A stretch of DNA of 64,000 nt from Candidatus Limivicinus sp. (GCA_051866745.1 JBJDXQ010000022.1:84533-148532), one strand, 5' to 3'. Counted from the stretch's first letter, positions 3,104 to 62,218 are shown. Program-made: numbers and translations. The notes: generated by a model not told the origin, from the sequence alone.

Positions 3104-4252
3104 ATGAAAGTTGCTGTTTTGGGCTTCGGCACCGTTGGGGCCGGGATTTATGAGATGCTTGCAAATGCAAAAGGGCTGGAGCAGGGGCCGGTTTTGGTGC
3201 GGCCCGGAAAGGATGACGCTCCCTTTAAGCGAACAAGCATAGAGGCCATTCTGGCGGAGCCGGGTGTGGAAGCTGTGGCGGAGGCCATGGGCGGCATTGA
3301 GCCGGCCTTCAGCTATGCCATGGCAGCTCTGAAAGCCGGCAAGCACTTTGTCACCTCCAATAAGGCTTTGGTGGCGGCCCATGGGATCGAGCTGGCCGCT
3401 GCGGCCCGGGAGAAGGGGGTGGGCTTCCTGTTCAGCGCCGCCTGCGGCGGTGGGATGCCCTTCCTGCATAATCTGAGTATCGCCGTGGAGAGCGACCTGA
3501 TCGTCTCCCTGGGCGGTATCCTCAACGGCACCACCAACTATATGCTGGACGCCATGCAGCGCCGCTCCCTGGGCTATGCCGAGGCTCTGAGTGACGCCCA
3601 GCGCCTGGGCTATGCCGAGGCAGACCCCAGCGCCGATGTCTCCGGCCTGGACGCCCTGCGCAAGATCGTCCTCAGTTCCGCGGTGGCCTATGATCTGCTG
3701 CCGGTGGAGGGCCTGTGCCATGAGGGCATCGAGAGCATCACCGCCGAGGACGTGAAGCGCATCCAGGCCCGGGGCCTCAGCTGCCGCCTGATGGCAAAAT
3801 GCGGCCCTGCCGTCGGCGGCAAGGTCTACGCCTATGTGGAGCCGGTGCTGTTCCCCGCCTCCGCCCCGGAGTGCAGCGTCCTGGATAACTACAACATGGC
3901 CCGGTATGAGGGCAAGTGCGCCGGCCCCATGGTGTTCATGGGCCAGGGCGCGGGCCGCTGGCCCACCGCTTCCGCCGTGCTGCGGGATCTGGATTGCATC
4001 CTCAAGGGTCGGCTGCATATGCTCTCCCCCGCCTGTCATGAGGGCAGCGCCGACAACGCCGCTTGCAGCCACAGCTACTATGTGCGCCTGCCCAGCAGCC
4101 TGTCCGGCTGCTTCGAGGCCAAGAGCTACAGCGAGGCTGACGGCGTCAGTGAGCTGATCACCAAACCCATGTCTGTCAAGGCCATGCATGAGCTGGCCGC
4201 CCGGCTGCGCGGCGAGGGGGCCTCCCTGTTCTTTGCCGCTGTGGAGGATTGA
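3104..4252 (+). CDS. hom: homoserine dehydrogenase
   Basis: MKVAVLGFGTVGAGIYEML Rossmann N-terminus, with GGAGG 6 nt upstream of the ATG at 3104. Homoserine-DH core motifs are present (LNGTTNYML, YAEADPS.DV.G.DA). Confidence 0.9.
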   Translation: MKVAVLGFGTVGAGIYEMLANAKGLEQGPVLVRPGKDDAPFKRTSIEAILAEPGVEAVAEAMGGIEPAFSYAMAALKAGKHFVTSNKALVAAHGIELAAAAREKGVGFLFSAACGGGMPFLHNLSIAVESDLIVSLGGILNGTTNYMLDAMQRRSLGYAEALSDAQRLGYAEADPSADVSGLDALRKIVLSSAVAYDLLPVEGLCHEGIESITAEDVKRIQARGLSCRLMAKCGPAVGGKVYAYVEPVLFPASAPECSVLDNYNMARYEGKCAGPMVFMGQGAGRWPTASAVLRDLDCILKGRLHMLSPACHEGSADNAACSHSYYVRLPSSLSGCFEAKSYSEADGVSELITKPMSVKAMHELAARLRGEGASLFFAAVED

Positions 4253-4255
4253 GCC

Positions 4256-5569
4256 ATGGTCAAGGTTGCAAAATTCGGCGGCTCCTCCGTGGCCGGGGCC
4301 CAGCAGTTTGAAAAGGTCAAGGCCATCGTGGAGGCGGACCCGGCCCGGAAGGTGGTGGTGGTCTCCGCCGCCGGCAAGCGCAGCAGCGGCGACCATAAGC
4401 TCACCGATCTGCTGTATCTCTGCCATGCCCACCTGACCTATGGGGTATCATGCGACGACATTGTTCATACAATAGAGCAGCGCCTCTGCGAGATTCGGGA
4501 CGAGTTGGGCCTTCGCTTTGATGTGGGGGCGGAGATGGCCCGGCTGGAGCAGAGCCTCAGCAAGGATATGTCCGCCGATGAGCTGGTGTCCCGGGGCGAG
4601 TACCTGACCTCCCGGCTGATGGCCGATTACCTGGGCTATCAGTTTGTGGACGCGGCGGACTGTGTTTTCTTCGCCTATGACGGTCAGGTGGACCGGGAAA
4701 AGACCTACGCCGCCATCAGGGCCGCCTATGAGCAGTACGGCCGCATCGTGATCCCCGGCTTCTATGGCCGCCTGCCCAACGGCCGCATCAAGGTGATGAC
4801 CCGGGGCGGCAGCGACATCAGCGGCGCCCTGGCCGTGGCGGCCATTGACGCCGACGTGTACGAGAACTGGACGGACGTGTCCGGCATCCTGATGGCGGAC
4901 CCCCGCATTGTGAAGGACCCCAAACCCATCGGCCGCATCACTTATGCGGAGCTGCGGGAGCTGGCCTTCATGGGGGCCTCCGTGCTCCATGAGGAATCGG
5001 TGCAGCCGGTGAAGGAGAAGGGGATCGCCCTCAACATCCGCAACACCAACTGCCCGGAGCATCCCGGGACCATCATCGTGGATAAGATTGAAAAGGAGGA
5101 GCGGGATGAACGTTTCCTCACTGGCATCGCCGGGCGGAAGAATTTCACCATCCTCACCGTCAATAAGCGGAACATGAACGCCAGCCAGACCCTGCGCCAG
5201 ACCCTGGAGATCTTTGACCACTATCATGCCAATGTGGAGCATATCACCCTGGGGCTGGACTCCTTTGCCCTGGTGACCTCCACCGCCGCCCTGGGGGACG
5301 CGCTTTACAGCCTCATGGGGGACATCGAGAAGCAGTGCCACCCGGAGGACCTGCGGGTGCAGGACGGCATCGCCCTGGTGGCTGCCGTGGGCCGCAAAAT
5401 GACCTTCCGCCCCGGCATCTCCGGCAAAATCTTCAAGGCGCTGGGCGAAGAGGGCATCAATATCCGCACCATTGCCCAGGGCGCGGATGAGCTTTCCATC
5501 ATCGTGGGCGTGGACAACAAAAATTACGAGGCGGCGGTACAGGTGCTGTACGACAGCTTCGCTGGTTAA
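4256..5569 (+). CDS. aspartate kinase
   Basis: MVKVAKFGGSSVA...VVVVSAAGK kinase N-terminus and C-terminal ACT-like repeats. It starts 3 nt after the hom stop. Confidence 0.9.
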   Translation: MVKVAKFGGSSVAGAQQFEKVKAIVEADPARKVVVVSAAGKRSSGDHKLTDLLYLCHAHLTYGVSCDDIVHTIEQRLCEIRDELGLRFDVGAEMARLEQSLSKDMSADELVSRGEYLTSRLMADYLGYQFVDAADCVFFAYDGQVDREKTYAAIRAAYEQYGRIVIPGFYGRLPNGRIKVMTRGGSDISGALAVAAIDADVYENWTDVSGILMADPRIVKDPKPIGRITYAELRELAFMGASVLHEESVQPVKEKGIALNIRNTNCPEHPGTIIVDKIEKEERDERFLTGIAGRKNFTILTVNKRNMNASQTLRQTLEIFDHYHANVEHITLGLDSFALVTSTAALGDALYSLMGDIEKQCHPEDLRVQDGIALVAAVGRKMTFRPGISGKIFKALGEEGINIRTIAQGADELSIIVGVDNKNYEAAVQVLYDSFAG

Positions 5570-20283: not shown

Positions 20284-21561
20284 TCAGTATCCGAAGTTGA
20301 AGAAGCCGGGGAAGGAGAACTGCCGTTGGCTGCTCTGCTGCTGCACCTGGGCCTGATCCTCCTCTGAACCCAGGGCGGACTGAATCTTTTCACCCACGAT
20401 GACCGTCAGCTCCACCGTCTCGCCCTGCCGGTAAACCGTCAGCTTCAGCTCCGCCCCGTCGTAGAGGTCACCCACCAGCCGCACCAGGTCGTCGCTGGAT
20501 TCTATCGCGGTTCCGTTGGCTTCGGTGATGATGTCATTGATCTGCAGTCCGGCCTTCTCGGCGGGGCTATCCTCGCTGATGGCCTTCACCGCCGCCCCCT
20601 TGGGCAGGCCGTAGCTCTGGGTCTCGCTGCTGACAGAGGTGACGGAAACGCCGATATAGGGCTTGGCGATGTAGCCCTTTTCAATAATGCTCTCCACAAT
20701 GTTCATCACGCTGTTGATGGGAATGGCAAAGCCGATGTTGTCGATGGACGCGCCGGAGCCGCTGCTGGAGTATTTGGCGTTGGTGATGCCGATGACCTCG
20801 CCGTAGAGGTTAAACAGGGCGCCGCCGGAGTTGCCGGAGTTGATGGCGCAGTCGGTCTGAATCAGCTCCATGGTCACGTTGCCAGAGAGGGTGACCTCCC
20901 GGTCAAGGGCGCTGACCACGCCGGCAGTGAGGGAGAAGGTCAGCTCACCCAGGGGGTTGCCGATGGCCACCACGCTGTCGCCCACGTTCAGATTGTCAGA
21001 ATCGCCCAGCACCACGGGGCTCAGATTTTCCGCGTCCACCTTCAGCACGGCGATGTCGTTGCTTTCGTCATAGCCGATCAGCTCTGCCTCATAGCTGCTG
21101 CCGTCGTACATGGTCACCTTGATGGAGGTGGAATTTTCGATCACGTGGTAGTTGGTAAGAATGTAGCCGTCATCACTGAGCACGAAGCCGGAGCCGGCAG
21201 CGGCAGAGGTGGTGGTAAAGCCGAAGTAGTTGGTGGTGACGGAGGTGGTGATGCCCACCGTGGAGGCCACGTTCTGGGCGTAGACCTCTGCGGGGCTCAG
21301 TTGCTTGCTGGTGTCAATGGTGGCCACATCGATGACGGAGCTGGGCCGCTCCCCCTTCAGAACCTGGGAACTGCTGCCGCTGCCGGAAGGAGCCAACAGC
21401 AGCACGCCGCCGGCGCCCAGCGCGCCGCCCAGCAGGGCGGCCACCAGCATCAGCGCGATCACCTTGCCCCAGGGGAAGCCCTTCTTTTTGCTGCCGCCGG
21501 TATACTCGGGATTATAGCTCCCATCACTGTTATAGGAACCGTTCGTGAAATCATCGTTCAT
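20284..21561 (-). CDS. HtrA/DegP-family serine protease with PDZ domain
   Basis: TM anchor, a trypsin-like core (TNYHV, DIAVLKV, GNSGGAL) and a C-terminal PDZ domain. Confidence 0.9.
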   Translation of the reverse strand: MNDDFTNGSYNSDGSYNPEYTGGSKKKGFPWGKVIALMLVAALLGGALGAGGVLLLAPSGSGSSSQVLKGERPSSVIDVATIDTSKQLSPAEVYAQNVASTVGITTSVTTNYFGFTTTSAAAGSGFVLSDDGYILTNYHVIENSTSIKVTMYDGSSYEAELIGYDESNDIAVLKVDAENLSPVVLGDSDNLNVGDSVVAIGNPLGELTFSLTAGVVSALDREVTLSGNVTMELIQTDCAINSGNSGGALFNLYGEVIGITNAKYSSSGSGASIDNIGFAIPINSVMNIVESIIEKGYIAKPYIGVSVTSVSSETQSYGLPKGAAVKAISEDSPAEKAGLQINDIITEANGTAIESSDDLVRLVGDLYDGAELKLTVYRQGETVELTVIVGEKIQSALGSEEDQAQVQQQSSQRQFSFPGFFNFGY

Positions 21562-21699
21562 GTTTGTCTCTCCTTTTATGGGCCTGAGCCCAGTGGCTTT
21601 TCAGCCTGTTTTTTATCATTGCCCGTATTGTACATATAAAAACTTAAATTTACCTGAAAGAACCTTGAAATATTTGTGAACACTGAAAGAAAGAAACAG

Positions 21700-21731
21700 G
21701 CGGGACACCGAACAATGGTGTCCCGCCTGAG
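21700..21731. repeat. left copy of duplicated terminator hairpin flanking MITE copy A
   Basis: gcgggacaccgaacaatggtgtcccgcctgag repeats at 21985-22016 with one loop mismatch. Confidence 0.85.
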
Positions 21732-21984
21732 CCTGTTAAAAAAGTCCATTTTACGGGCTGCATCAGTGAATTCTGCCGGTCAAAGGCTTCCCCTTGAGGG
21801 GAAGCTGGCGGCGCAGCCGACTGATGAGGTGGTAAGTAAAAACTTGGAAAAAGCAGAAGCTTCCGTCAAAAAAGCAGGATTTCCACCTCATCCGCCCAGT
21901 GTGCGCACTGGGCACCTTCCCCTCCAGGGGAAGGCTTGAGAAAGAACCCCTCTTCCTCGCACTATGGTTTTTTGACAGTCAGAA
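21732..21984. mobile_element. MITE-like palindromic element, copy A (about 253 bp, non-coding)
   Basis: Alignable by eye over its whole length with 48274-48527. Long imperfect inverted arms are present (ggcttccccttgaggggaagc...gatgaggtgg / ccacctcatc...ccttcccctccaggggaagg), with outer ends tgt(t/c)aaaaa / tttttgaca. Confidence 0.75.
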
Positions 21985-22016
21985 GCGGGACACCGAAAAA
22001 TGGTGTCCCGCCTGAG
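21985..22016. repeat. right copy of duplicated hairpin (the purF-proximal terminator)
   Basis: Direct repeat of 21700-21731, located 8 nt from the purF stop. Confidence 0.85.
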
Positions 22017-22024
22017 GATGCGTT

Positions 22025-23485
22025 TTATTTTTTCCCTGCGTGAATCTTGTTTTCAAAGCGATCCTTCTCCCCGGCGCTGGGGATGGCCGTGGGATAGCCG
22101 CCGCCGAAGCAGGCGGTGCAGAAGCCGCCGGGCTCATCGCCTGCCAGCCGCACCACATCCTCCACGCTCAGGTAGCCCAGGGAGTCCACCCCGATGATAC
22201 CGGCAATCTCCTCCACGGTGTGGTGGTTGGCGATCAGCTTCTCCGCGTCGTCGATGTCCGTGCCGTAGTAGCACTCACTGATGAAGGGCGGGGCGCTGAC
22301 TCGCATGTGGATTTCCTTTGCCCCGGCCTGCCGCAGCAGCTCGATGGTGCGCCGGCAGGTGGTGCCCCGGACGATGGAATCATCGATCATTACCACCCGC
22401 TTCCCCTCCACCACGGAGCGGATGGGGTTGAGCTTGATGTTCACGCCGTTTTCCCGCATCTCCTGAGTGGGGGAGATAAAGGTGCGTCCAATGTATTTGT
22501 TCTTGGTAAAGCCCATGGCGTAGGGGATGCCGGAGGCCTCGGCGTAGCCCAGGGCCGCGTCCAGCCCGGAATCCGGCACGCCGATGACCACATCCGCCTC
22601 CACCGGGTGGGCTTTGGCCAGAAAGGCCCCGGCCCGCTTCCGGGCCTGACAGACGCTGCACCCGTCGATGACGGAATCCGGCCTGGCAAAATAGATATAC
22701 TCAAACACGCACAGGCTCCGCCCCGCCTGACCGCAATGGCTGCGGTCACTGTGGATGCCCCTGCCGCTGACGGTGACGATCTCCCCGGGCAGAATATCCC
22801 GCTCAAATTCCGCGCCTACCGCATCCAGCGCGCAGGACTCGGAGGCGAATACCACCTTGCCGTCCTTCCGCCGGCCCATGCACAAAGGCCGGAAGCCATG
22901 GGGATCCCGGGCGGCAATCAGCTTGCTGGGGGATGAGATCACCAGAGAATAGGCTCCCTCCAGCCGGTTCATGGCCGCCGATACCGCCGCCTCAATGGAG
23001 CTGCTGCGCAGCCGCTCCTGCACGATGATATAGGCGATCACCTCGGAGTCGGTGGTGGTGTGGAAGATGGAGCCCTTTTCCTCCAGCTGCTTGCGCAGCT
23101 CCATGGAGTTGGTCAGATTGCCGTTATGGGCCAGGGCCATACGACCCTTGTAGTGGTTAATGATCAGGGGCTGCACATTGCGCTTGTTGTCCGAGCCGGT
23201 GGTGGCATAGCGCACATGGCCCACAGCGATGTTGCCGCTGCCCAGGGCCTGCAGCCGCTCCGGCGTGAAAACATCGTTCACCAGGCCCACATCCCGGTAG
23301 GCGCTGAAAACACCGTCGTCATTGATCACCATGCCGGCGCTTTCCTGGCCCCGGTGCTGCAGGGAGAACAGACCGTAGTATACCAGACCGGCCAGGTCTG
23401 CCGTTGCCGGGGAATAGACGCCGAAAACGCCGCATTCCTCATGGATGTGGCCGTTCCTTCGGTAGGGCTGCTCAGTCTGCATCAT
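22025..23485 (-). CDS. purF: amidophosphoribosyltransferase
   Basis: Propeptide followed by CGVFGV, a PRPP-binding motif ([13 protein letters not shown]) and C-terminal Fe-S cysteines. Confidence 0.95.
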
Positions 23486-39315: not shown

Positions 39316-39568
39316 AGAGAGGCTCATTTGAGCCTCCCTGAGCCTGTAAAAACCGTGCTTCACGCACCGAAGATAGAGCAGCGGGGGTGCGCGAGGGGGT
39401 CAAGACCCGCCTCGCAGTACAATAACCCGCCGCAGAAAATCCTTGAAAATCAAGGATTTTCGAGCGAAGCAGCATTTTGATAGTATCAAAATGCTCGGCG
39501 GTCGAAGCTTATCAAAAAGCCAACAAGGACTTTGTGATAAGCTGAGAGAGGCTCAAATGAGCCTCTCT
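39316..39568. repeat. about 250-bp highly structured palindromic insert bounded by 24-bp inverted-repeat hairpins
   Basis: Ends are agagaggctcatttgagcctccct and agagaggctcaaatgagcctctct, which are reverse complements. Internal perfect hairpins lie at 39436-39460, 39472-39494 and 39505-39543. Confidence 0.6.
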
Positions 39569-46195: not shown

Positions 46196-46461
46196 CCCCT
46201 ACGGTTCTGATGAGGTGGGGGGACGGCCCTCTCAGCCCAGTGTGCGCACTGGGCAGCTCCCCCAGAGGGGGAGCCAAGAGGGGTGCGGCAGAAGGCCGGC
46301 CACCTCATCCGCCCAGTGTGCGCACTGGGCAGCTCCCCCAGAGGGGGAGCCAAGAGGGGTGCGGCAGAAGGCCGGCCACCTCATCCGCCCAGTGTGCGCA
46401 CTGGGCACCTTCCCCTCGAAGGGGAAGGCTTGAGAATGGGATTTCCTTCCTCGCGGTATGG
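46196..46461. mobile_element. rearranged copy C of the MITE-like family
   Basis: The right arm ccacctcatccgcccagtgtgcgcactgggcaccttcccctcgaaggggaaggcttgag matches copies A and B. The left arm is reduced to ...ctgatgaggtgg. Confidence 0.65.
46235..46407. repeat. 76-bp tandem repeat, two identical units plus a partial third
   Basis: Units 46235-46310 and 46311-46386 are identical. The third unit (from 46387) shares the first 21 nt and then switches to the canonical arm hairpin. Confidence 0.85.
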
Positions 46462-46494
46462 CTTCCGAAAGCCGGTTCCCTTAGCAAGGGGAGC

Positions 46495-47535
46495 CTAATA
46501 CAAAAGAAGAATGTTCGCCGGTGCAATGCCCATCTCTCCGGGGAAATTCTGAGGCTTTTTGTCTTTGGGCAGGCGCCACCAGATGGGCGGGGAGTCCGGG
46601 GCCTGAGAGGCGTAGCGGAACTGGATGATGGTCTCAAAGGGCTCCTCCATCTCCTCCACAAAGGTCACGGGATAGCGGTTCTGCTGGGCGGCGGGATGGA
46701 AATAGTGGGCGCGGATGCCCACGGCCTTCAGGCCCTCCCTTACTTCGGCGGCGGTTTGCAGGCGGACGCCCCAGGAGGGCACCTCCACCTCATGGGTGCC
46801 AACGCGCACCGCCTCCGCAATGTTCTTGCAGCCGGTGAGCAGGGCGGCCTGGGGGCTGCCGGGGTCGGCAAAGAGGGCCTTGGTGGGCTTCTGGGTGAGA
46901 ATCTGCCCGGCGTCCATGACGGCGATCTCCTGACTGAGGTTATAGGCCTCCTCCCGGCTGTGGGTCACCATCAGAACCTCCCGGCCGTAGGAACGGAGAA
47001 TGTCCCGCAGCTCGATTTTCAGCAGATCCCGCAGGTGGCCGTCCAGGGCGGAGAAGGGCTCATCCAGCATCAGGAGCTGTGGCTCGCTGACCATGATGCG
47101 GGCCAGGGCCACCCGCTGGGCCTGGCCGCCGGAGAGCTGATAGGGCCGGTGCTTCTCCAGCCCCTCCAGGCGCATGAGGCGGATCATCTCCCGCAGCCGC
47201 TGCTCCCGGAGGGCTTTGTCCTTCTCCCGGTGCAGGCCGCAGCGGATGTTCTGGGCCACGGTCATGTTGGGAAAGAGGGCATAGTTCTGAAACAGGTAGC
47301 CCACCTGACGCTTCTGGGGCGGCAGGTCGATCTTCTGCTCCGAGTCAAAGAGCACCCGGCCGTCCAGCTCAATATGGCCGCTGTCCGGCCTTTCGATGCC
47401 GGCAATGCATTTGAGAGTATAGCTCTTGCCGCAGCCGGAGGGACCCAGCAGGCAGGTGATGCCATTTTCCGCCTCAAAAGCCACATCCAGGTGAAAGGCG
47501 CCCAAACGCTTATGAATATCCACTACAAGACTCAT
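46495..47535 (-). CDS. modC: molybdate-type ABC transporter ATP-binding protein
   Basis: GPSGCGKS, LSGGQAQRVALARIM and a C-terminal TOBE-like extension. Operon context with modB and modA. Confidence 0.85.
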   Translation of the reverse strand: MSLVVDIHKRLGAFHLDVAFEAENGITCLLGPSGCGKSYTLKCIAGIERPDSGHIELDGRVLFDSEQKIDLPPQKRQVGYLFQNYALFPNMTVAQNIRCGLHREKDKALREQRLREMIRLMRLEGLEKHRPYQLSGGQAQRVALARIMVSEPQLLMLDEPFSALDGHLRDLLKIELRDILRSYGREVLMVTHSREEAYNLSQEIAVMDAGQILTQKPTKALFADPGSPQAALLTGCKNIAEAVRVGTHEVEVPSWGVRLQTAAEVREGLKAVGIRAHYFHPAAQQNRYPVTFVEEMEEPFETIIQFRYASQAPDSPPIWWRLPKDKKPQNFPGEMGIAPANILLLY

Positions 47536-48206
47536 GCTCTGCCCCTCCTTTTCTGCCGGGTTTCCAGCATGTTCACCGCCAGAAGCACCACGGTGCTGAT
47601 GGCCAGGTTGACCAGCACCCAGAACATGGCCCCCGCCTCATCGTTGGTACGCCAGAGCTGGTATACGGTGGTGGAGATGGTGGCCGTCCGGCCGGGGGTA
47701 TAGCCGATGAGCATACTGGTAGCGCCGTACTCCCCCAGGGCCCGGGCAAAGGCCAGGACGGTGCCGGCCAGAATGCCCTGGCGGCAGGCGGGCATACGGA
47801 TGCGCCAGAAGATATAGGTATTGGACAGGCCCAGGGTCTGGCCGGAATAGGCCAGGGTATCGTCAAAGCTCTCAAAGGCACCCCGGGCGGTACGGTACAT
47901 CAGCGGGAAGGACACCACCAGGGCGGCCAGAACACCGCCATACCAGGTCATGACGAACTTGACGCCGAAGTTGGCAAGGAAAATGCCCAAAGGCCGCTTG
48001 GCACCGAAGAGCAGCAGCAGAAAATAGCCGCAGACCGTAGGCGGCAGCACCATGGGCAGGGTGAGGACAACGTCCAGAACGCCCTTCACTGCCCGGGGCA
48101 GGCGGGCGGCATAATAGGCAAAGAAGAGGCCCAGGAAGAACACCAGTACGCAGCTGATGGCAGCGATGCGCAGGGAGTTCCACAGAGGGTAGAGGTCAAT
48201 GTTCAT
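47532..48206 (-). CDS. modB: molybdate ABC transporter permease
   Basis: 224 aa, about 5 TM helices, EAA-like loop FARALGEYGATSM. Overlaps the modC start. Confidence 0.88.
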   Translation of the reverse strand: MNIDLYPLWNSLRIAAISCVLVFFLGLFFAYYAARLPRAVKGVLDVVLTLPMVLPPTVCGYFLLLLFGAKRPLGIFLANFGVKFVMTWYGGVLAALVVSFPLMYRTARGAFESFDDTLAYSGQTLGLSNTYIFWRIRMPACRQGILAGTVLAFARALGEYGATSMLIGYTPGRTATISTTVYQLWRTNDEAGAMFWVLVNLAISTVVLLAVNMLETRQKRRGRA

Positions 48207-48242: not shown

Positions 48243-48273
48243 TTGAAAAGGCAGCACATAAGTGCTGCCTTTT
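48243..48273. repeat. left copy of duplicated hairpin flanking MITE copy B
   Basis: ttgaaaaggcagcacataagtgctgcctttt is identical to 48528-48558. Confidence 0.85.
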
Positions 48274-48527
48274 TACAGCTTGTCAAAAAGTCTGTTTTAC
48301 GTGCTGCACCAGTGGGTTCTGCCAGTCAAAGGCTTCCCCTTGAGGGGAAGCTGGCGGCGTAGCCGACTGATGAGGTGGCAAGTAAAAACCGGGAAAAAAC
48401 AGAAACTTCCATCAAAAAAACAGGATTTCCACCTCATCCGCCCAGTGCGCGCACTGGGCACCTTCCCCTCAAGGGGAAGGCTTGAGAAAGTGTTCTCCTT
48501 CCTCGTACTATGTTTTTTGACAGTCTC
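48274..48527. mobile_element. MITE-like palindromic element, copy B (about 254 bp), inside the modA-modB intergenic region
   Basis: Collinear with copy A (21732-21984) with scattered substitutions. It is flanked by a perfect 31-bp direct repeat. Confidence 0.75.
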
Positions 48528-48558
48528 TTGAAAAGGCAGCACATAAGTGCTGCCTTTT
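48528..48558. repeat. right copy of duplicated hairpin (modA-proximal)
   Basis: Identical to 48243-48273; located 17 nt from the modA stop. Confidence 0.85.
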
Positions 48559-48575: not shown

Positions 48576-49463
48576 TCAGGCGACGGGGGAGAAGCCCACG
48601 GATTCAAACACGGACATGGCGGGCTCGGTCAGCAGGTAGTCCAGGAAGGCCTGGGCCTCGGTGGGATGGGAGCTGGTTTTCAGCACGGAGGCGGGGTAGA
48701 TCACCTGGCCGCACATCTCGGCGGTGGCGCTGTCAGCCACGGTGAGGCCGGCAGAGAACGCGTCGGTGCAGTACACCACGCCGCAGTCAACACTGGCTTC
48801 GCTGACCTGAGTGGTGACTTCCTTCACGTTGGTGCCGTAGGTGATGAGGCCGGCGTTGGCCAGCTCTTCCTCGCTGAGCTCATAATAGGCCAGAATCTTC
48901 TGGGTGTACTGGCCCACAGGCACGTCGCTGTTGCCCATGGCCATGAACACGTCGCCGTTCTTCAGGGCCTCGGCCAGCTGGTCAAAGGACTCCAGGCCCT
49001 TGGGGTTGCCATCGGGAACGGCCAGAACCACCTTGTTCTCCAGCAGGTTCAGGCGGCTGTCTGCCAGGACAAAGTCCAGACCCTCGGTATTCACATCGGC
49101 AGAGGCGTTGATGTCCAGCTGGTCCATCTGCTTCTGGCCGGCGGAAATGAACAGGTCGCAGTCGGCCCCCTCCTGAATCTGGGTCTTCAGGGTGCCGGAG
49201 GAGTCAAAGTTATAAGTAATGGTGATTTCCGGGTGATCGGCCTCATACAGGTCCTTGATCTGGGTGAGGGTTTCGGTCATGGAAGCGGCGGCAAAGACGA
49301 TGATCTCCGTCTTTTCCACAGGGGCGGCCTCGGGGGCGGCTTCTGCCGGGGCTTCCGTGGCGGCAGGTTCAGCGGCGGGCTGGGCGGAGGAACCGCCGCA
49401 GGCAGCCAGGGCCACTACCATTGCCAGAGCAAGCAGCAGGGCCAACATTTTTTTCATTTTCAT
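48576..49463 (-). CDS. modA: molybdate ABC transporter substrate-binding lipoprotein
   Basis: Signal peptide with lipobox (LALAMVVALAACGG), IIVFAAASMTETL and the ModA-like length. Confidence 0.88.
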   Translation of the reverse strand: MKMKKMLALLLALAMVVALAACGGSSAQPAAEPAATEAPAEAAPEAAPVEKTEIIVFAAASMTETLTQIKDLYEADHPEITITYNFDSSGTLKTQIQEGADCDLFISAGQKQMDQLDINASADVNTEGLDFVLADSRLNLLENKVVLAVPDGNPKGLESFDQLAEALKNGDVFMAMGNSDVPVGQYTQKILAYYELSEEELANAGLITYGTNVKEVTTQVSEASVDCGVVYCTDAFSAGLTVADSATAEMCGQVIYPASVLKTSSHPTEAQAFLDYLLTEPAMSVFESVGFSPVA

Positions 49464-50840: not shown

Positions 50841-50925
50841 TGGTGGGGGAAGGTGGATTCGAACCACCGAAGGCATTGCCAGCAGATTTACAGTCTGTCC
50901 CCTTTGGCCACTCGGGAATTCCCCC
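50841..50925 (-). tRNA. tRNA-Tyr (GTA), CCA encoded
   Basis: The reverse complement folds as gggggaa..cccgagtggccaaagggg..actGTAaatc..long variable arm..ggtggttcgaatccaccttcccccacca. Length 85 nt. Confidence 0.9.
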
Positions 50926-50991
50926 ATATTTAACTTTGAAGCCCTTTTGTCACTCAAACCAAAGCCCGGCGAAGCGGGGTGGATTTGACGT

Positions 50992-51067
50992 TGGAGCTGG
51001 TGGACGGACTCGAACCCCCGACCTGCTGATTACAAATCAGCTGCTCTACCGACTGAGCTACACCAGC
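50992..51067 (-). tRNA. tRNA-Thr (TGT), CCA encoded
   Basis: Reverse complement: gctggtgtagctcagtcggtagagcagctgatTTGTAAtcagcaggtcgggggttcgagtccgtccaccagctcca. The cloverleaf has one T-stem mismatch. Confidence 0.88.
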
Positions 51068-60914: not shown

Positions 60915-60967
60915 GAATAATACGAAAAGCCGCCTGCCGTATGGCAGGTGTTCGCAGAACCCTTTCG

Positions 60968-61000
60968 GTCCCGGCAGCAATGTCTGCCGGGACTTTTCTT
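60968..61000 (+). terminator. intrinsic terminator after guaB
   Basis: Hairpin gtcccggcag/ctgccgggac followed by ttttctt. Confidence 0.8.
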
Positions 61001-61064
61001 GCATATATTGAAGCCGTATGATATGATTAAACAGACCGATAAACTTGAATTTGTAGGTGAGAAA

Positions 61065-61562
61065 ATGATTTTAAGAAAAGCATATATGAATGAAGTAAAT
61101 ACATCTTATCAATGCATTGAAGAGGCAAGAGAATACCACTCTTCCCTCGGGTTTACACAATGGCATCCAGGATATCCAAGTCTCCGCACGATAGAGGAAG
61201 ATATCGAAAACGGAATTGGCTTCGTTTTTGCAGAAGATAATGAAGTGATAGGATATTGCTGTATCATAATTGGAGACGAACCGGCTTACCGTGTAATTGA
61301 TGGCTCATGGAAAACAAATAGAGCATATGCAGTTGTACATAGAATGGCATTTTCAAAGAAAAGTAGGGGTAAAAGCTTGTCGGGAAAGGCAATTTCTTTG
61401 ATTAAGGATTTCTGTATAGAAAATGGAATTGAAGCCATCCGTGTTGATACACAGGAAGAAAACAAGGTGATGCAACACATTCTTTCTCGCGAAGGATTTG
61501 AGTATTGCGGACTGGTTACTTTTGATGGCGGTCCTAAGTTGGCATATGAATGGGACCGATAA
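61065..61562 (+). CDS. GNAT-family N-acetyltransferase (low-GC gene)
   Basis: Start MILRKAYMNE follows AGGTGAG. HRMAFSKKSRGKSLSGKAISL is motif A-like. Composition is clearly more AT-rich than the neighbours. Confidence 0.8.
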   Translation: MILRKAYMNEVNTSYQCIEEAREYHSSLGFTQWHPGYPSLRTIEEDIENGIGFVFAEDNEVIGYCCIIIGDEPAYRVIDGSWKTNRAYAVVHRMAFSKKSRGKSLSGKAISLIKDFCIENGIEAIRVDTQEENKVMQHILSREGFEYCGLVTFDGGPKLAYEWDR

Positions 61563-61643
61563 ATTCCAATTTGTCGAACTGATAAAGGCGCACTTCTATA
61601 CACCTTTTGGTGTACTGTGCGGTCTGCGATTTTGAGCAGCACC

Positions 61644-61698
61644 AAAGCCTCCCTTGTGTAAAGGGAGGTGGCACGGCGAAGCCGTGACGGAGGGATTG
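61644..61698. repeat. left inverted repeat of the DUF559 element
   Basis: aaagcctcccttgtgtaaagggaggtggcacggcgaagccgtgacggagggattg is an imperfect reverse complement of 62046-62092. It supplies the GGAGGG RBS. Confidence 0.7.
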
Positions 61699-61700
61699 TC

Positions 61701-62069
61701 ATGCAGACGAAGCATAATAAACAGTTGGTTCCATTGGCAAAGCAACTGCGAAAAGAAATGACAAAAGAAGAACGTCATCTATGGTACGACTTTTTGCGCT
61801 CCTATCCTGTCCGTTTTTCCAGACAAAAGGTACTTGGAAAATATATCGCTGATTTTTATAGTGCAGAAGCAAAACTTGTCATTGAGCTGGATGGTTCTCA
61901 ACACTATGAGGATAGAAATATTAAAAAAGATGCAGACCGTACCGCTTTTCTGGAGGGGTATGGTCTGAGAGTCATTCGTATCTCCAACAACGAAGTCGGC
62001 AGAAACTTCCGTGGAGTGTGTGAGTATATCGATGCTGCGGTAAAGCAATCCCTCAGTCAGCTTCGCTGA
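61701..62069 (+). CDS. DUF559 (Vsr-like / PD-(D/E)XK) endonuclease-domain protein
   Basis: QLRKEMTKEERHLWYDFLRSYPVRFSRQKVLGKYIADFYSAEAKLVIELDGSQH...D..R...L...G..V.R is the classic DUF559 pattern. Confidence 0.85.
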   Translation: MQTKHNKQLVPLAKQLRKEMTKEERHLWYDFLRSYPVRFSRQKVLGKYIADFYSAEAKLVIELDGSQHYEDRNIKKDADRTAFLEGYGLRVIRISNNEVGRNFRGVCEYIDAAVKQSLSQLR

Positions 62070-62092
62070 CAGCTCCCTTTACACAAGGGAGC
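62046..62092. repeat. right inverted repeat of the DUF559 element
   Basis: caatccctcagtcagcttcgctgacagctccctttacacaagggagc overlaps the 3-prime end of the ORF. Confidence 0.7.
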
Positions 62093-62116
62093 CGCTGCCA
62101 CACCGGTAAAACATAC

Positions 62117-62152
62117 AAAACCGACCTATGATCGTAACCATAGGTCGGTTTT
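62117..62152. terminator. bidirectional terminator hairpin
   Basis: Hairpin aaaaccgacctatg/cataggtcggtttt. Confidence 0.8.
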
Positions 62153-62218
62153 ACTGTCTTACGAAGCCCCGGCAAACCGGCAGGCGGCTTTTTTAGGCCG
62201 TGACTGAGAGGTTTGCCT

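Follow-up and report, generated by a model that had tools for sequence, protein, structure and literature searches.

How does a non-coding element of 253 bp come to lie between two copies of a complete transcription terminator, and which enzyme would have placed it there? The question is raised by an element located between purF and a protease gene in DNA from a Candidatus Limivicinus sp. (the window, by which we mean the whole 64-kb stretch that was analyzed). We consider it likely that this element is a MITE with terminal inverted repeats (TIRs) of the IS1182 type, presumably moved in trans by an IS1182 DDE transposase, and that its ends are joined at the feet of terminator stem-loops, with the hairpin being duplicated in the process.

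The element at the purF terminator and its copies

The following features make up the locus; the element at purF is called copy A, and TSD denotes a target-site duplication.

20284-21561, minus strand: trypsin/PDZ (HtrA-like) protease gene, downstream of purF (gene call and Pfam)
21700-21731: left TSD copy at copy A, the purF terminator stem-loop; promoter-distal on the purF (minus) strand
21729-21746, plus strand: left terminal inverted repeat of copy A, GAGCCTGTTAAAAAAGTC; family consensus CAGCTTGTCAAAAAAGTC
21732-21984, plus strand: MITE copy A, 253 bp, without a credible ORF; the inverted-repeat consensus equally allows 21729-21982
21783-21938: conserved inner core of copy A, two inverted arms around an A-rich center
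21966-21982, minus strand: right terminal inverted repeat of copy A, CTGACTGTCAAAAAACC in the minus-strand reading
21985-22016: right TSD copy at copy A, the purF-proximal hairpin, 9 nt past the purF stop codon, with the T-tract lost
22025-23485, minus strand: purF (amidophosphoribosyltransferase; Pfam GATase_6/7 and Pribosyltran), whose terminator is the target

Copy A is non-coding and bracketed by two copies of gcgggacaccgaaNaatggtgtcccgcctgag (21700-21731 and 21985-22016) that differ by a single loop mismatch, and it occupies the space between the purF stop codon (22025, minus strand) and the start of the protease gene (21561). Our re-reading of the sequences agrees with the first-pass annotation on the 253-bp element and its 32-bp repeats, and the tgtcaaaaa-type inverted termini described there are real: the element runs from CAGCTTGTCAAAAAAGTC to TTTTTTGACAGTCTC, with (C/G)AGCYTGTYAAAAAAG at the left and CTTTTTTGACAGTC at the right end. 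The boundaries are ambiguous by about 3 nt, the first three bases of copy A coinciding with GAG of the target. The same annotation called the element a long imperfect palindrome, a description that holds in part. Each arm of the inner core contains a first GC hairpin, a second GC hairpin, and GATGAGGTGG; the termini, the first GC hairpin (GCTTCCCCTTGAGGGGAAGC / CCTTCCCCTCCAGGGGAAGG), and GATGAGGTGG are common to both arms in inverted orientation, but the second hairpin differs between them. Folding of one strand of copy A as DNA or RNA, as had been proposed, gave far more stable structures than did shuffled controls (z ~ -10), and the only ORFs in copy A are stop-to-stop artifacts that cross a flanking hairpin. 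An Rfam scan matched no family at the element, and the sole Rfam matches in the window are two tRNA genes on the minus strand (50844-51067). Each terminal repeat also contains a -35-like TTGACA that faces outwards (TTTTTTGACAG; window 21972-21977 and the consensus of both ends). These hexamers could form hybrid promoters with the flanks, and one promoter-like match is found at 21972-22001.

The history of the flanking repeats can be read from relatives in which the element is missing. An exact-protein look-up of the window purF gave no match, and we instead compared the contigs of purF homologues in public assemblies that are 92-99% identical to the window protein. The first-pass annotation had proposed looking for empty sites with a single hairpin, and four contigs have one: L037, L038 (purF 98% identical), L039, and L040 (purF 95% identical), with L039 originating from NCBI assembly GCA_004560305.1. 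Each has one hairpin and a T-tract, and the spacer between purF and the protease gene measures 175-184 bp in the empty sites, compared to 463 bp and two hairpins in the window. The empty-site hairpin, a 14-bp stem followed by the T-tract, is scored as an intrinsic terminator directly after purF, in line with the earlier reading of the flanking sequence as a stem-loop resembling the purF terminator. Because the empty site of close relatives has a single hairpin with T-tract, the flanking repeats of copy A are true target-site duplications. The flanking hairpins thus belong to the host target, as had been suggested; they also differ from copy to copy. The empty and filled purF alleles demonstrate that the element is mobile. 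In L035 and L036, whose purF is 99% identical, the insertion is present and the contigs end within the element, as is usual for repeats in short-read assemblies. The L036 contig (~1960-2042), after ending in the MITE, runs on into a Nextera adapter (CTGTCTCTTATACACATCTCCGAGCCCACGAGAC), which is an artifact of the public assembly record.

On the purF strand, the duplicated segment starts at CTCAG, directly ahead of the stem, and stops at the 3' foot; it excludes the T-tract, which in the window is kept by the distal hairpin copy only (21697-21729, minus strand; ctgtttctttctttc on the minus strand). At this site purF retains a hairpin without a T-tract, so that the MITE probably becomes part of the purF 3' UTR and termination probably shifts to the distal copy.

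The window contains two further MITEs and an ORF whose flanks resemble the core of copy A:

39340-39544, minus strand: third MITE, with an unrelated core but of the same superfamily; CAGCTTATCACAAAGTCC ... GGTTTTTACAGGCTC on the minus strand, 24-bp hairpin duplication
48243-48273: left TSD copy of copy B, 31-bp hairpin ttgaaaaggcagcacataagtgctgcctttt
48274-48527, plus strand: MITE copy B; the inverted-repeat consensus starts at 48276
48528-48558: right TSD copy of copy B, 31-bp hairpin ttgaaaaggcagcacataagtgctgcctttt
61701-62069: DUF559 ORF (Vsr-like nuclease; Pfam E = 8.5e-30), bracketed by inverted GC-hairpin modules (window 61644-62096)

Copy B had been described as having the same organization as copy A but a different duplicated hairpin, and this is what we find. 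It is 89% identical to copy A over 234 nt, and its flanks form a perfect 31-bp repeat of another hairpin, which can also be read as 33 bp with one mismatch. Its neighbors are an ABC-transporter binding-protein gene (48576-49463, minus strand) and a permease gene (47532-48206, minus strand). An empty site for copy B was not obtained among the relatives of the permease gene, all of which are filled and broken inside the MITE. The duplication at the third MITE comprises 24 bp (39316-39339 and 39545-39568). Its two copies differ by one stem base and by mutually inverted loops (ATTT versus AAAT), the pattern that a template switch within one strand of a palindrome would leave.

In a scan of 185,579 species representatives, a core 20-mer had 25 occurrences in one MAG (CAMCCC01) and was also present in two or three other Oscillospiraceae MAGs; the remaining matches are due to chance. 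CAMCCC01 is a close relative, as one of its loci is collinear with the window at 91-99% protein identity. These matches, together with the two window copies, bear out the view of copy A as a multi-copy non-coding element with terminal inverted repeats. The CAMCCC01 copies share their ends (left (C/G)AGCTTGTCAAAAAAG, right CTTTTTTGACAGTCTC), and in each case the left end directly adjoins a terminator-like hairpin, which differs from site to site. Copies without a flanking duplication had been named as a finding that would speak against the target duplication. The clean CAMCCC01 copies have duplications of 28-33 bp, but the duplication is short or absent in L016, L018, L022, and L027. In L016 and L027, the right junction is the exact product of a deletion from the element end (GTCTCA, ACAG) to the same bases in the 3' arm of the hairpin, which suggests that the short duplications result from secondary microhomology deletion. 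With the same architecture present at over 20 independent sites, chance can be set aside.

Among 15 aligned copies (window copies A and B and loci L007-L033), the inner 160 bp are more than 95% conserved, compared to ~70-80% for the ~45-bp outer segments with the terminal repeats. This is the opposite of what constraint through transposase binding would produce, although part of the difference may reflect ascertainment, as the copies were fetched with the core 20-mer. In L030, a ~610-bp tandem duplication of the 3' end of a gene (3389-3751 and 4002-4364) is located just upstream of a truncated MITE copy.

Termini shared with IS1182-family elements

A metagenome scan with the left terminus recovered at least 120 loci, mostly from human-gut assemblies among the matches listed. 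At least four further MITE families (X1-X4, 160-350 bp) start with CAGCTTGTCAAAAAAGTC and end with TTTTTTGACAGTCT(C/G). They are inserted at different hairpins and are flanked by hairpin duplications; occasionally a single hairpin has received insertions in tandem, and some of the flanks are chimeric. Including the 39340-39544 element, at least five other MITE families share only these ends with copy A and have the same duplication habit.

Several of these loci have peculiarities of their own. In the X1-X4 loci (L075-L194), the left terminal repeat is directly followed by its complement, which results in a perfect 31-40-bp palindrome (AGCTTGTCAAAAAAGTC..GACTTTTTTGACAAGCT) that could in turn serve as a target hairpin; L081, L134, and L178 have tandem insertions at a single hairpin. 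The duplicated hairpin copies in L170 differ by a compensatory pair (AAAGCACC..GGTGCTTT versus AAGGCACC..GGTGCCTT), and L092 and L132 each contain one MITE between two different hairpins, as expected after recombination between copies.

No element bounded by inverted repeats or duplicated hairpins in the fetched loci was longer than ~350 bp, and the transposase was found by inspecting L148. In this singleton locus, a terminal 24 nt identical to the MITE consensus, CAGCTTGTCAAAAAAGTC(Y)GTTTT, lies beside a hairpin, and the sequence next to it encodes the final 225 residues of an IS1182-family transposase (NCBIfam NF033551, E = 8e-41; Pfam DDE_Tnp_1_6). L148 is thus a truncated IS copy with an exactly matching end. 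Two complete ISs, reached through homologs of this transposase fragment, have whole-hairpin duplications as well. L196 (1,515 bp; IRL CAGCCTGTCGAAAAAGTCC, IRR CAGATTGTCGAATAACCC as reverse complement) is flanked by a perfect 27-bp repeat of a whole stem-loop (AAAGGAGCAGCGTTAAGCTGCTCCTTT), and its two ORFs match NF033551 positions 6-149 (143.7 bits) and 202-488 (234.5 bits), each falling below the 270-bit cut-off because the gene is split. The flanks of L209 (1,565 bp) consist of a perfect 22-bp palindrome (AGAGACCGGCATGCCGGTCTCT) with a T-tract after it. The same IRL is found in a plasmid copy from Thermocaproicibacter melissae (Oscillospiraceae; L210) with a transposase annotated by PGAP as IS1182 family; both ends of this copy abut hairpins, but these are two different ones, and there is no duplication. 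On this plasmid (NZ_CP101828.1; L210/L212) the IS1182 copy adjoins a type III-A CRISPR cas10, and the record was linearized exactly at the IS end.

The MITE consensus and the IRL of the complete ISs L196, L209, and L210 are identical at 15 of 18 positions, a close but not exact match. IS1182 elements are recognized by a DDE transposase that fits the family model (NF033551; Pfam DUF772 and DDE_Tnp_1_6), and the autonomous relatives L148, L196, L209, and L210 have such an enzyme. The window elements, for their part, combine matching TIRs, small size without a transposase gene, evidence for transposition, and the same kind of target and duplication, as expected for derived MITEs. The termini shared with complete ISs identify the window elements as miniature relatives of IS1182-family ISs that lack a transposase. 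A search of the 64-kb window and of ~190 kb from the related MAG CAMCCC01 turned up no IS1182 transposase gene; we assume an autonomous partner in this lineage, and, judging from the shared ends, the transposase gene acting in this genome would be of the IS1182 type.

BLAST searches against plasmids and phages with the MITE or its 42-nt terminal palindrome gave only chance matches or matches to the inner modules. A scan of viral contigs with the 17-mer inverted repeat produced 31 matches, essentially all due to chance and in coding sequence; the one real-looking match, the end in L071, is an X4-type MITE end. The contigs P0122, P0124, and P0126 contain truncated IS copies only. The left end (CAGACTGTAGACAAAGTCCATTTTATGG) of an annotated IS1182-family element on an Enterococcus faecium plasmid (L211, CP063640.1, ~885-915) has AAAGTCCATTTTAYGG in common with that of copy A in the window, which places conservation of the subterminal sequence far beyond the Clostridia.

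Hairpin length, joining of the ends, and alternative explanations

The empty site was rebuilt for 20 independent insertions (from the window family, X1-X4, one other family, and the IS L196), and the duplication was set against the best hairpin present there. The duplications measure 24-41 bp and the hairpins 21-38 nt, and the two lengths are strongly correlated (Pearson r = 0.845; permutation p < 1e-5, with 0 of 100,000 permutations reaching r), the duplication exceeding the hairpin by 0.4 +/- 2.8 nt on average. Both junctions are located within 3 nt of the hairpin feet in 19 of the 20 insertions, often symmetrically (+1/-1, +2/-2); L010, with an offset of 6-9 nt, is the lone exception. When all insertions are considered, including the IS L209, the duplications range from 22 to 41 bp. 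Because the length of the duplication tracks the length of the hairpin, the stagger is set by structure and not by a fixed ruler. The preference for hairpins is also evident from 85 distinct outer flanks, 56% of which contain a perfect stem of at least 8 bp ending at most 6 nt from the inverted repeat, compared to 1% for the same criterion at random positions in the same contigs.

Duplication of a segment by a DDE transposase means that attack on the top strand took place at the segment's left border and attack on the bottom strand at its right border. The likely sequence of events would start with a DDE transposase of the IS1182 type that acts in trans on the non-autonomous MITE; the IS1182-family partner would be bounded by CAGCTTGTCAAAAAAGTC / GACTTTTTTGACAAGCTG. 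The transposase would pick a terminator-type stem-loop as the target and link the two 3'-OH ends of the element to opposite strands, at or within ~3 nt of the 5' feet of this stem-loop. The feet would meet at the base of a cruciform extruded from the duplex, or at that of hairpins formed while the DNA is transiently single-stranded, but the joins would be one hairpin length apart in linear (B-form) DNA, so that gap repair would copy the whole hairpin to both sides. The chemistry at the cruciform feet is our reconstruction from the observed junctions. Of the two mechanisms offered in the first-pass annotation, the one that places a staggered reaction at the foot of an extruded hairpin or cruciform is favored by the finding that the duplication length follows the hairpin length over 24-41 bp.

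An alternative explanation retains the transposase and the joins but takes the target to be a hairpin in single-stranded DNA, rather than a supercoil-driven cruciform; the lagging-strand template, the non-template strand, or an R-loop at a terminating polymerase could provide the setting. Stems of 8-17 bp are poorly extruded as cruciforms without strong supercoiling, and the targets are overwhelmingly functional-looking terminators at gene ends (also PMC3098183), both of which would fit a single-stranded target. However, duplication of a whole hairpin requires joins on both strands, which are most simply obtained from a symmetric four-way structure, and the junction offsets are often symmetric about the dyad. 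We therefore regard the single-stranded target as possible but rather unlikely. The length of the duplications could also suggest an integrase with a fixed ruler (Cas1/casposase-like, or a transposase with a stagger of ~30 bp), for which the hairpin would only be a preferred neighborhood. The clean duplications of the window family do cluster at 28-33 bp, the same size range as the CRISPR repeats duplicated by Cas1-Cas2, and the first seven copies (28-33 bp) taken by themselves would fit a ruler of ~30 bp, unlike the full range of 22-41 bp. Across families with the same ends, this wider range follows the length of the hairpin; these ends enclose the gene for an IS1182 DDE transposase, and no copy was seen next to a cas1-like gene. 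A fixed ruler is thus extremely improbable, and integration of the casposon or Cas1 type was rejected because the duplication of 22-41 bp tracks the hairpin and the autonomous elements encode IS1182 transposases.

Could the arrangement have arisen without a transposase, with the terminator hairpin duplicated by slippage during replication or by a copy-choice template switch, or with hairpins that are part of the element? Palindromes are hot spots for template switching, and the loop inversion at 39316/39545 and the compensatory stem changes in L170 reveal that such processes do act on these hairpins. However, the same termini lie precisely at the feet of the hairpin in over 20 places, which template switching would not bring about; each site has a hairpin of its own, and empty alleles contain it once; and the conserved inverted termini of 17-24 nt, common to transposase-encoding ISs with the same duplications, have the appearance of a transposase substrate. 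An origin without transposase is, in light of these observations, very unlikely. The DUF559 (Vsr-like) nuclease was also considered as the mobilizing enzyme, a link that the first-pass annotation had suggested and that is not needed. The inner arms of the MITE and the flanks of the DUF559 ORF do have the same architecture (GC hairpin, CTGGC, second hairpin, GACNGANGRGRTKG), which would make the arms equivalent to the modules that flank the nuclease gene, and DUF559 cassettes adjoin MITE copies in L002 and L019. However, the 39340-39544 element and X1-X4 have the same termini and hairpin duplications without such modules, the complete elements with these termini encode an IS1182 transposase and not DUF559, and the DUF559 cassette in the window has neither these termini nor a flanking duplication. 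The adjacency in L002 and L019 is to be expected, as the module hairpins themselves serve as MITE targets, and it is highly doubtful that DUF559 moves the element.

Two other classes of elements do not fit. IS200/IS605-type elements and REPIN/RAYT systems have subterminal hairpins of their own, no TIRs, no target duplication, and a Y1 HUH transposase; the present element has TIRs, its flanking hairpins are target-derived and duplicated, and the enzyme is a DDE transposase. Group IIC introns insert just past a terminator hairpin without duplicating it, have a ribozyme structure, and usually contain a reverse-transcriptase ORF; here the hairpin is duplicated, the element comprises only 253 bp, and no group II intron match to Rfam was obtained in the window.

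The GC-hairpin modules in the MITE core look like passenger sequence. They may represent a second selfish system in Clostridia, REPIN/RAYT-like and driven by a single-copy DUF559 nuclease, that hitch-hikes in an IS1182-type MITE, but this is a speculative notion to which we give little credence. If this were the case, then the second system would also account for the core being better conserved than the transposase-binding ends. The last codons and the stop codon of the DUF559 ORF lie within the right module, an arrangement of gene and flanking palindromes that resembles REPIN/RAYT. At 46224-46471, two and a half tandem units of 76 bp, 99% identical and derived from the right-arm module of the MITE (CCACCTCATCCGCCCAGTGTGCGCACTGGGCA and the GC hairpin), run into a degenerate MITE right end just downstream of an ABC ATPase gene (46495-47535). 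An indel distinguishes the window from a close relative at 60915-62210: the related MAG (L013, 925-1260) has a MITE between duplicated hairpins at the orthologous site, and the window has a single diverged hairpin followed by ~1.2 kb with a GNAT acetyltransferase ORF and the DUF559 cassette.

Relation to known systems and significance

ISfinder lists the IS1182 family with "0-60 bp, palindromic targets". ISCbo5, an ISBma2-like member of the IS1182 family in C. botulinum group III that is also abundant in C. novyi-NT, is located at gene-end hairpins, read as terminators, in all but one case (Skarin et al. 2011, PMC3098183), and Table S3 of that study gives its ends as cag...ctg and its direct repeats as whole hairpins of 20-44 bp. 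The first-pass annotation had by implication placed the duplications beyond the behavior of DDE transposases; this does not hold, since the ends belong to IS1182 ISs, for which whole-hairpin repeats (PMC3098183 Table S3) and the targeting of hairpins or terminators (also PMC4923244, PMC5678879) were already on record. Whole hairpins likewise flank the window MITEs and the ISs L196 and L209. The termini of ISCbo5 and of our elements can be likened by cag...ctg alone, and ISCbo5 is autonomous and 1,612 bp long, whereas the window element is a non-coding 253 bp, found in Oscillospiraceae, with an unrelated core of GC-hairpin modules. For IS1272, another member of the IS1182 family, terminator stem-loops are the targets irrespective of their primary sequence, but they are deleted upon insertion (Furi et al. 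2016, PMC4923244; Wan et al. 2017, PMC5678879). In each of these papers, the ISfinder curators are cited on the palindromic targets of the IS1182 family. IS1272 and TnSha1 of staphylococci thus share with the present elements the structure-specific targeting of terminator stem-loops and a transposase of the same family. The difference is that IS1272 removes all or part of the stem-loop and leaves no duplication, whereas the present elements duplicate it, which reveals that the IS1182 family is not uniform. Attack at the 5' feet of a cruciform, with duplication of the stem-loop, was drawn as a hypothetical alternative to the IS1272 deletion (pathway b in Fig 13 of PMC5678879).

Similarities to other systems are more limited. 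Classical bacterial MITEs (Correia/CREE, RUP, ERIC, MITEAba12; PMC10969869) are also short, non-coding, TIR-bounded, structured, intergenic, multi-copy, and presumably mobilized in trans by a related IS, but their duplications are short and fixed (2-9 bp); the 2024 review of prokaryotic MITEs mentions no hairpin-duplicating MITE (PMC10969869). Spacer integration by Cas1-Cas2 and casposons resemble our case in that joins at the two borders of a ~30-bp palindromic segment lead to its duplication; however, the enzyme belongs to another class and the length is fixed by the repeat or a ruler, whereas here it varies with the hairpin. ISs that target REP sequences (IS1397 and members of IS110/IS1111; PMC1525189) have a preference for extragenic palindromes too, but they insert in or beside one specific palindrome family with duplications of 0-4 bp; for the present elements any terminator-like hairpin serves, and it is copied whole.

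Hairpin-duplicating MITEs do not overturn current understanding. The mechanism class is already known, as hairpin duplication is on record for the IS1182 family; what is added are derivatives that are non-autonomous, the finding that these are abundant in gut Clostridia, and a quantitative relation between the lengths of hairpin and duplication. Comprising over 20 independent insertions, together with empty sites and hairpins of various sizes, the elements provide a clean natural data set on a poorly studied form of target choice by DDE transposases, in which a DNA shape, the terminator stem-loop, is recognized instead of a sequence. The cruciform-foot model, drawn but unsupported in the IS1272 literature, thereby becomes directly testable. 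The elements also matter for annotation, through duplicated terminators, 3' UTRs lengthened by 250 bp, and contig breaks in metagenomes. Because the joins fall at the feet of the hairpin, the terminator is copied rather than destroyed, and this explains how dozens of copies per genome can be present in gut Clostridia while staying out of genes.
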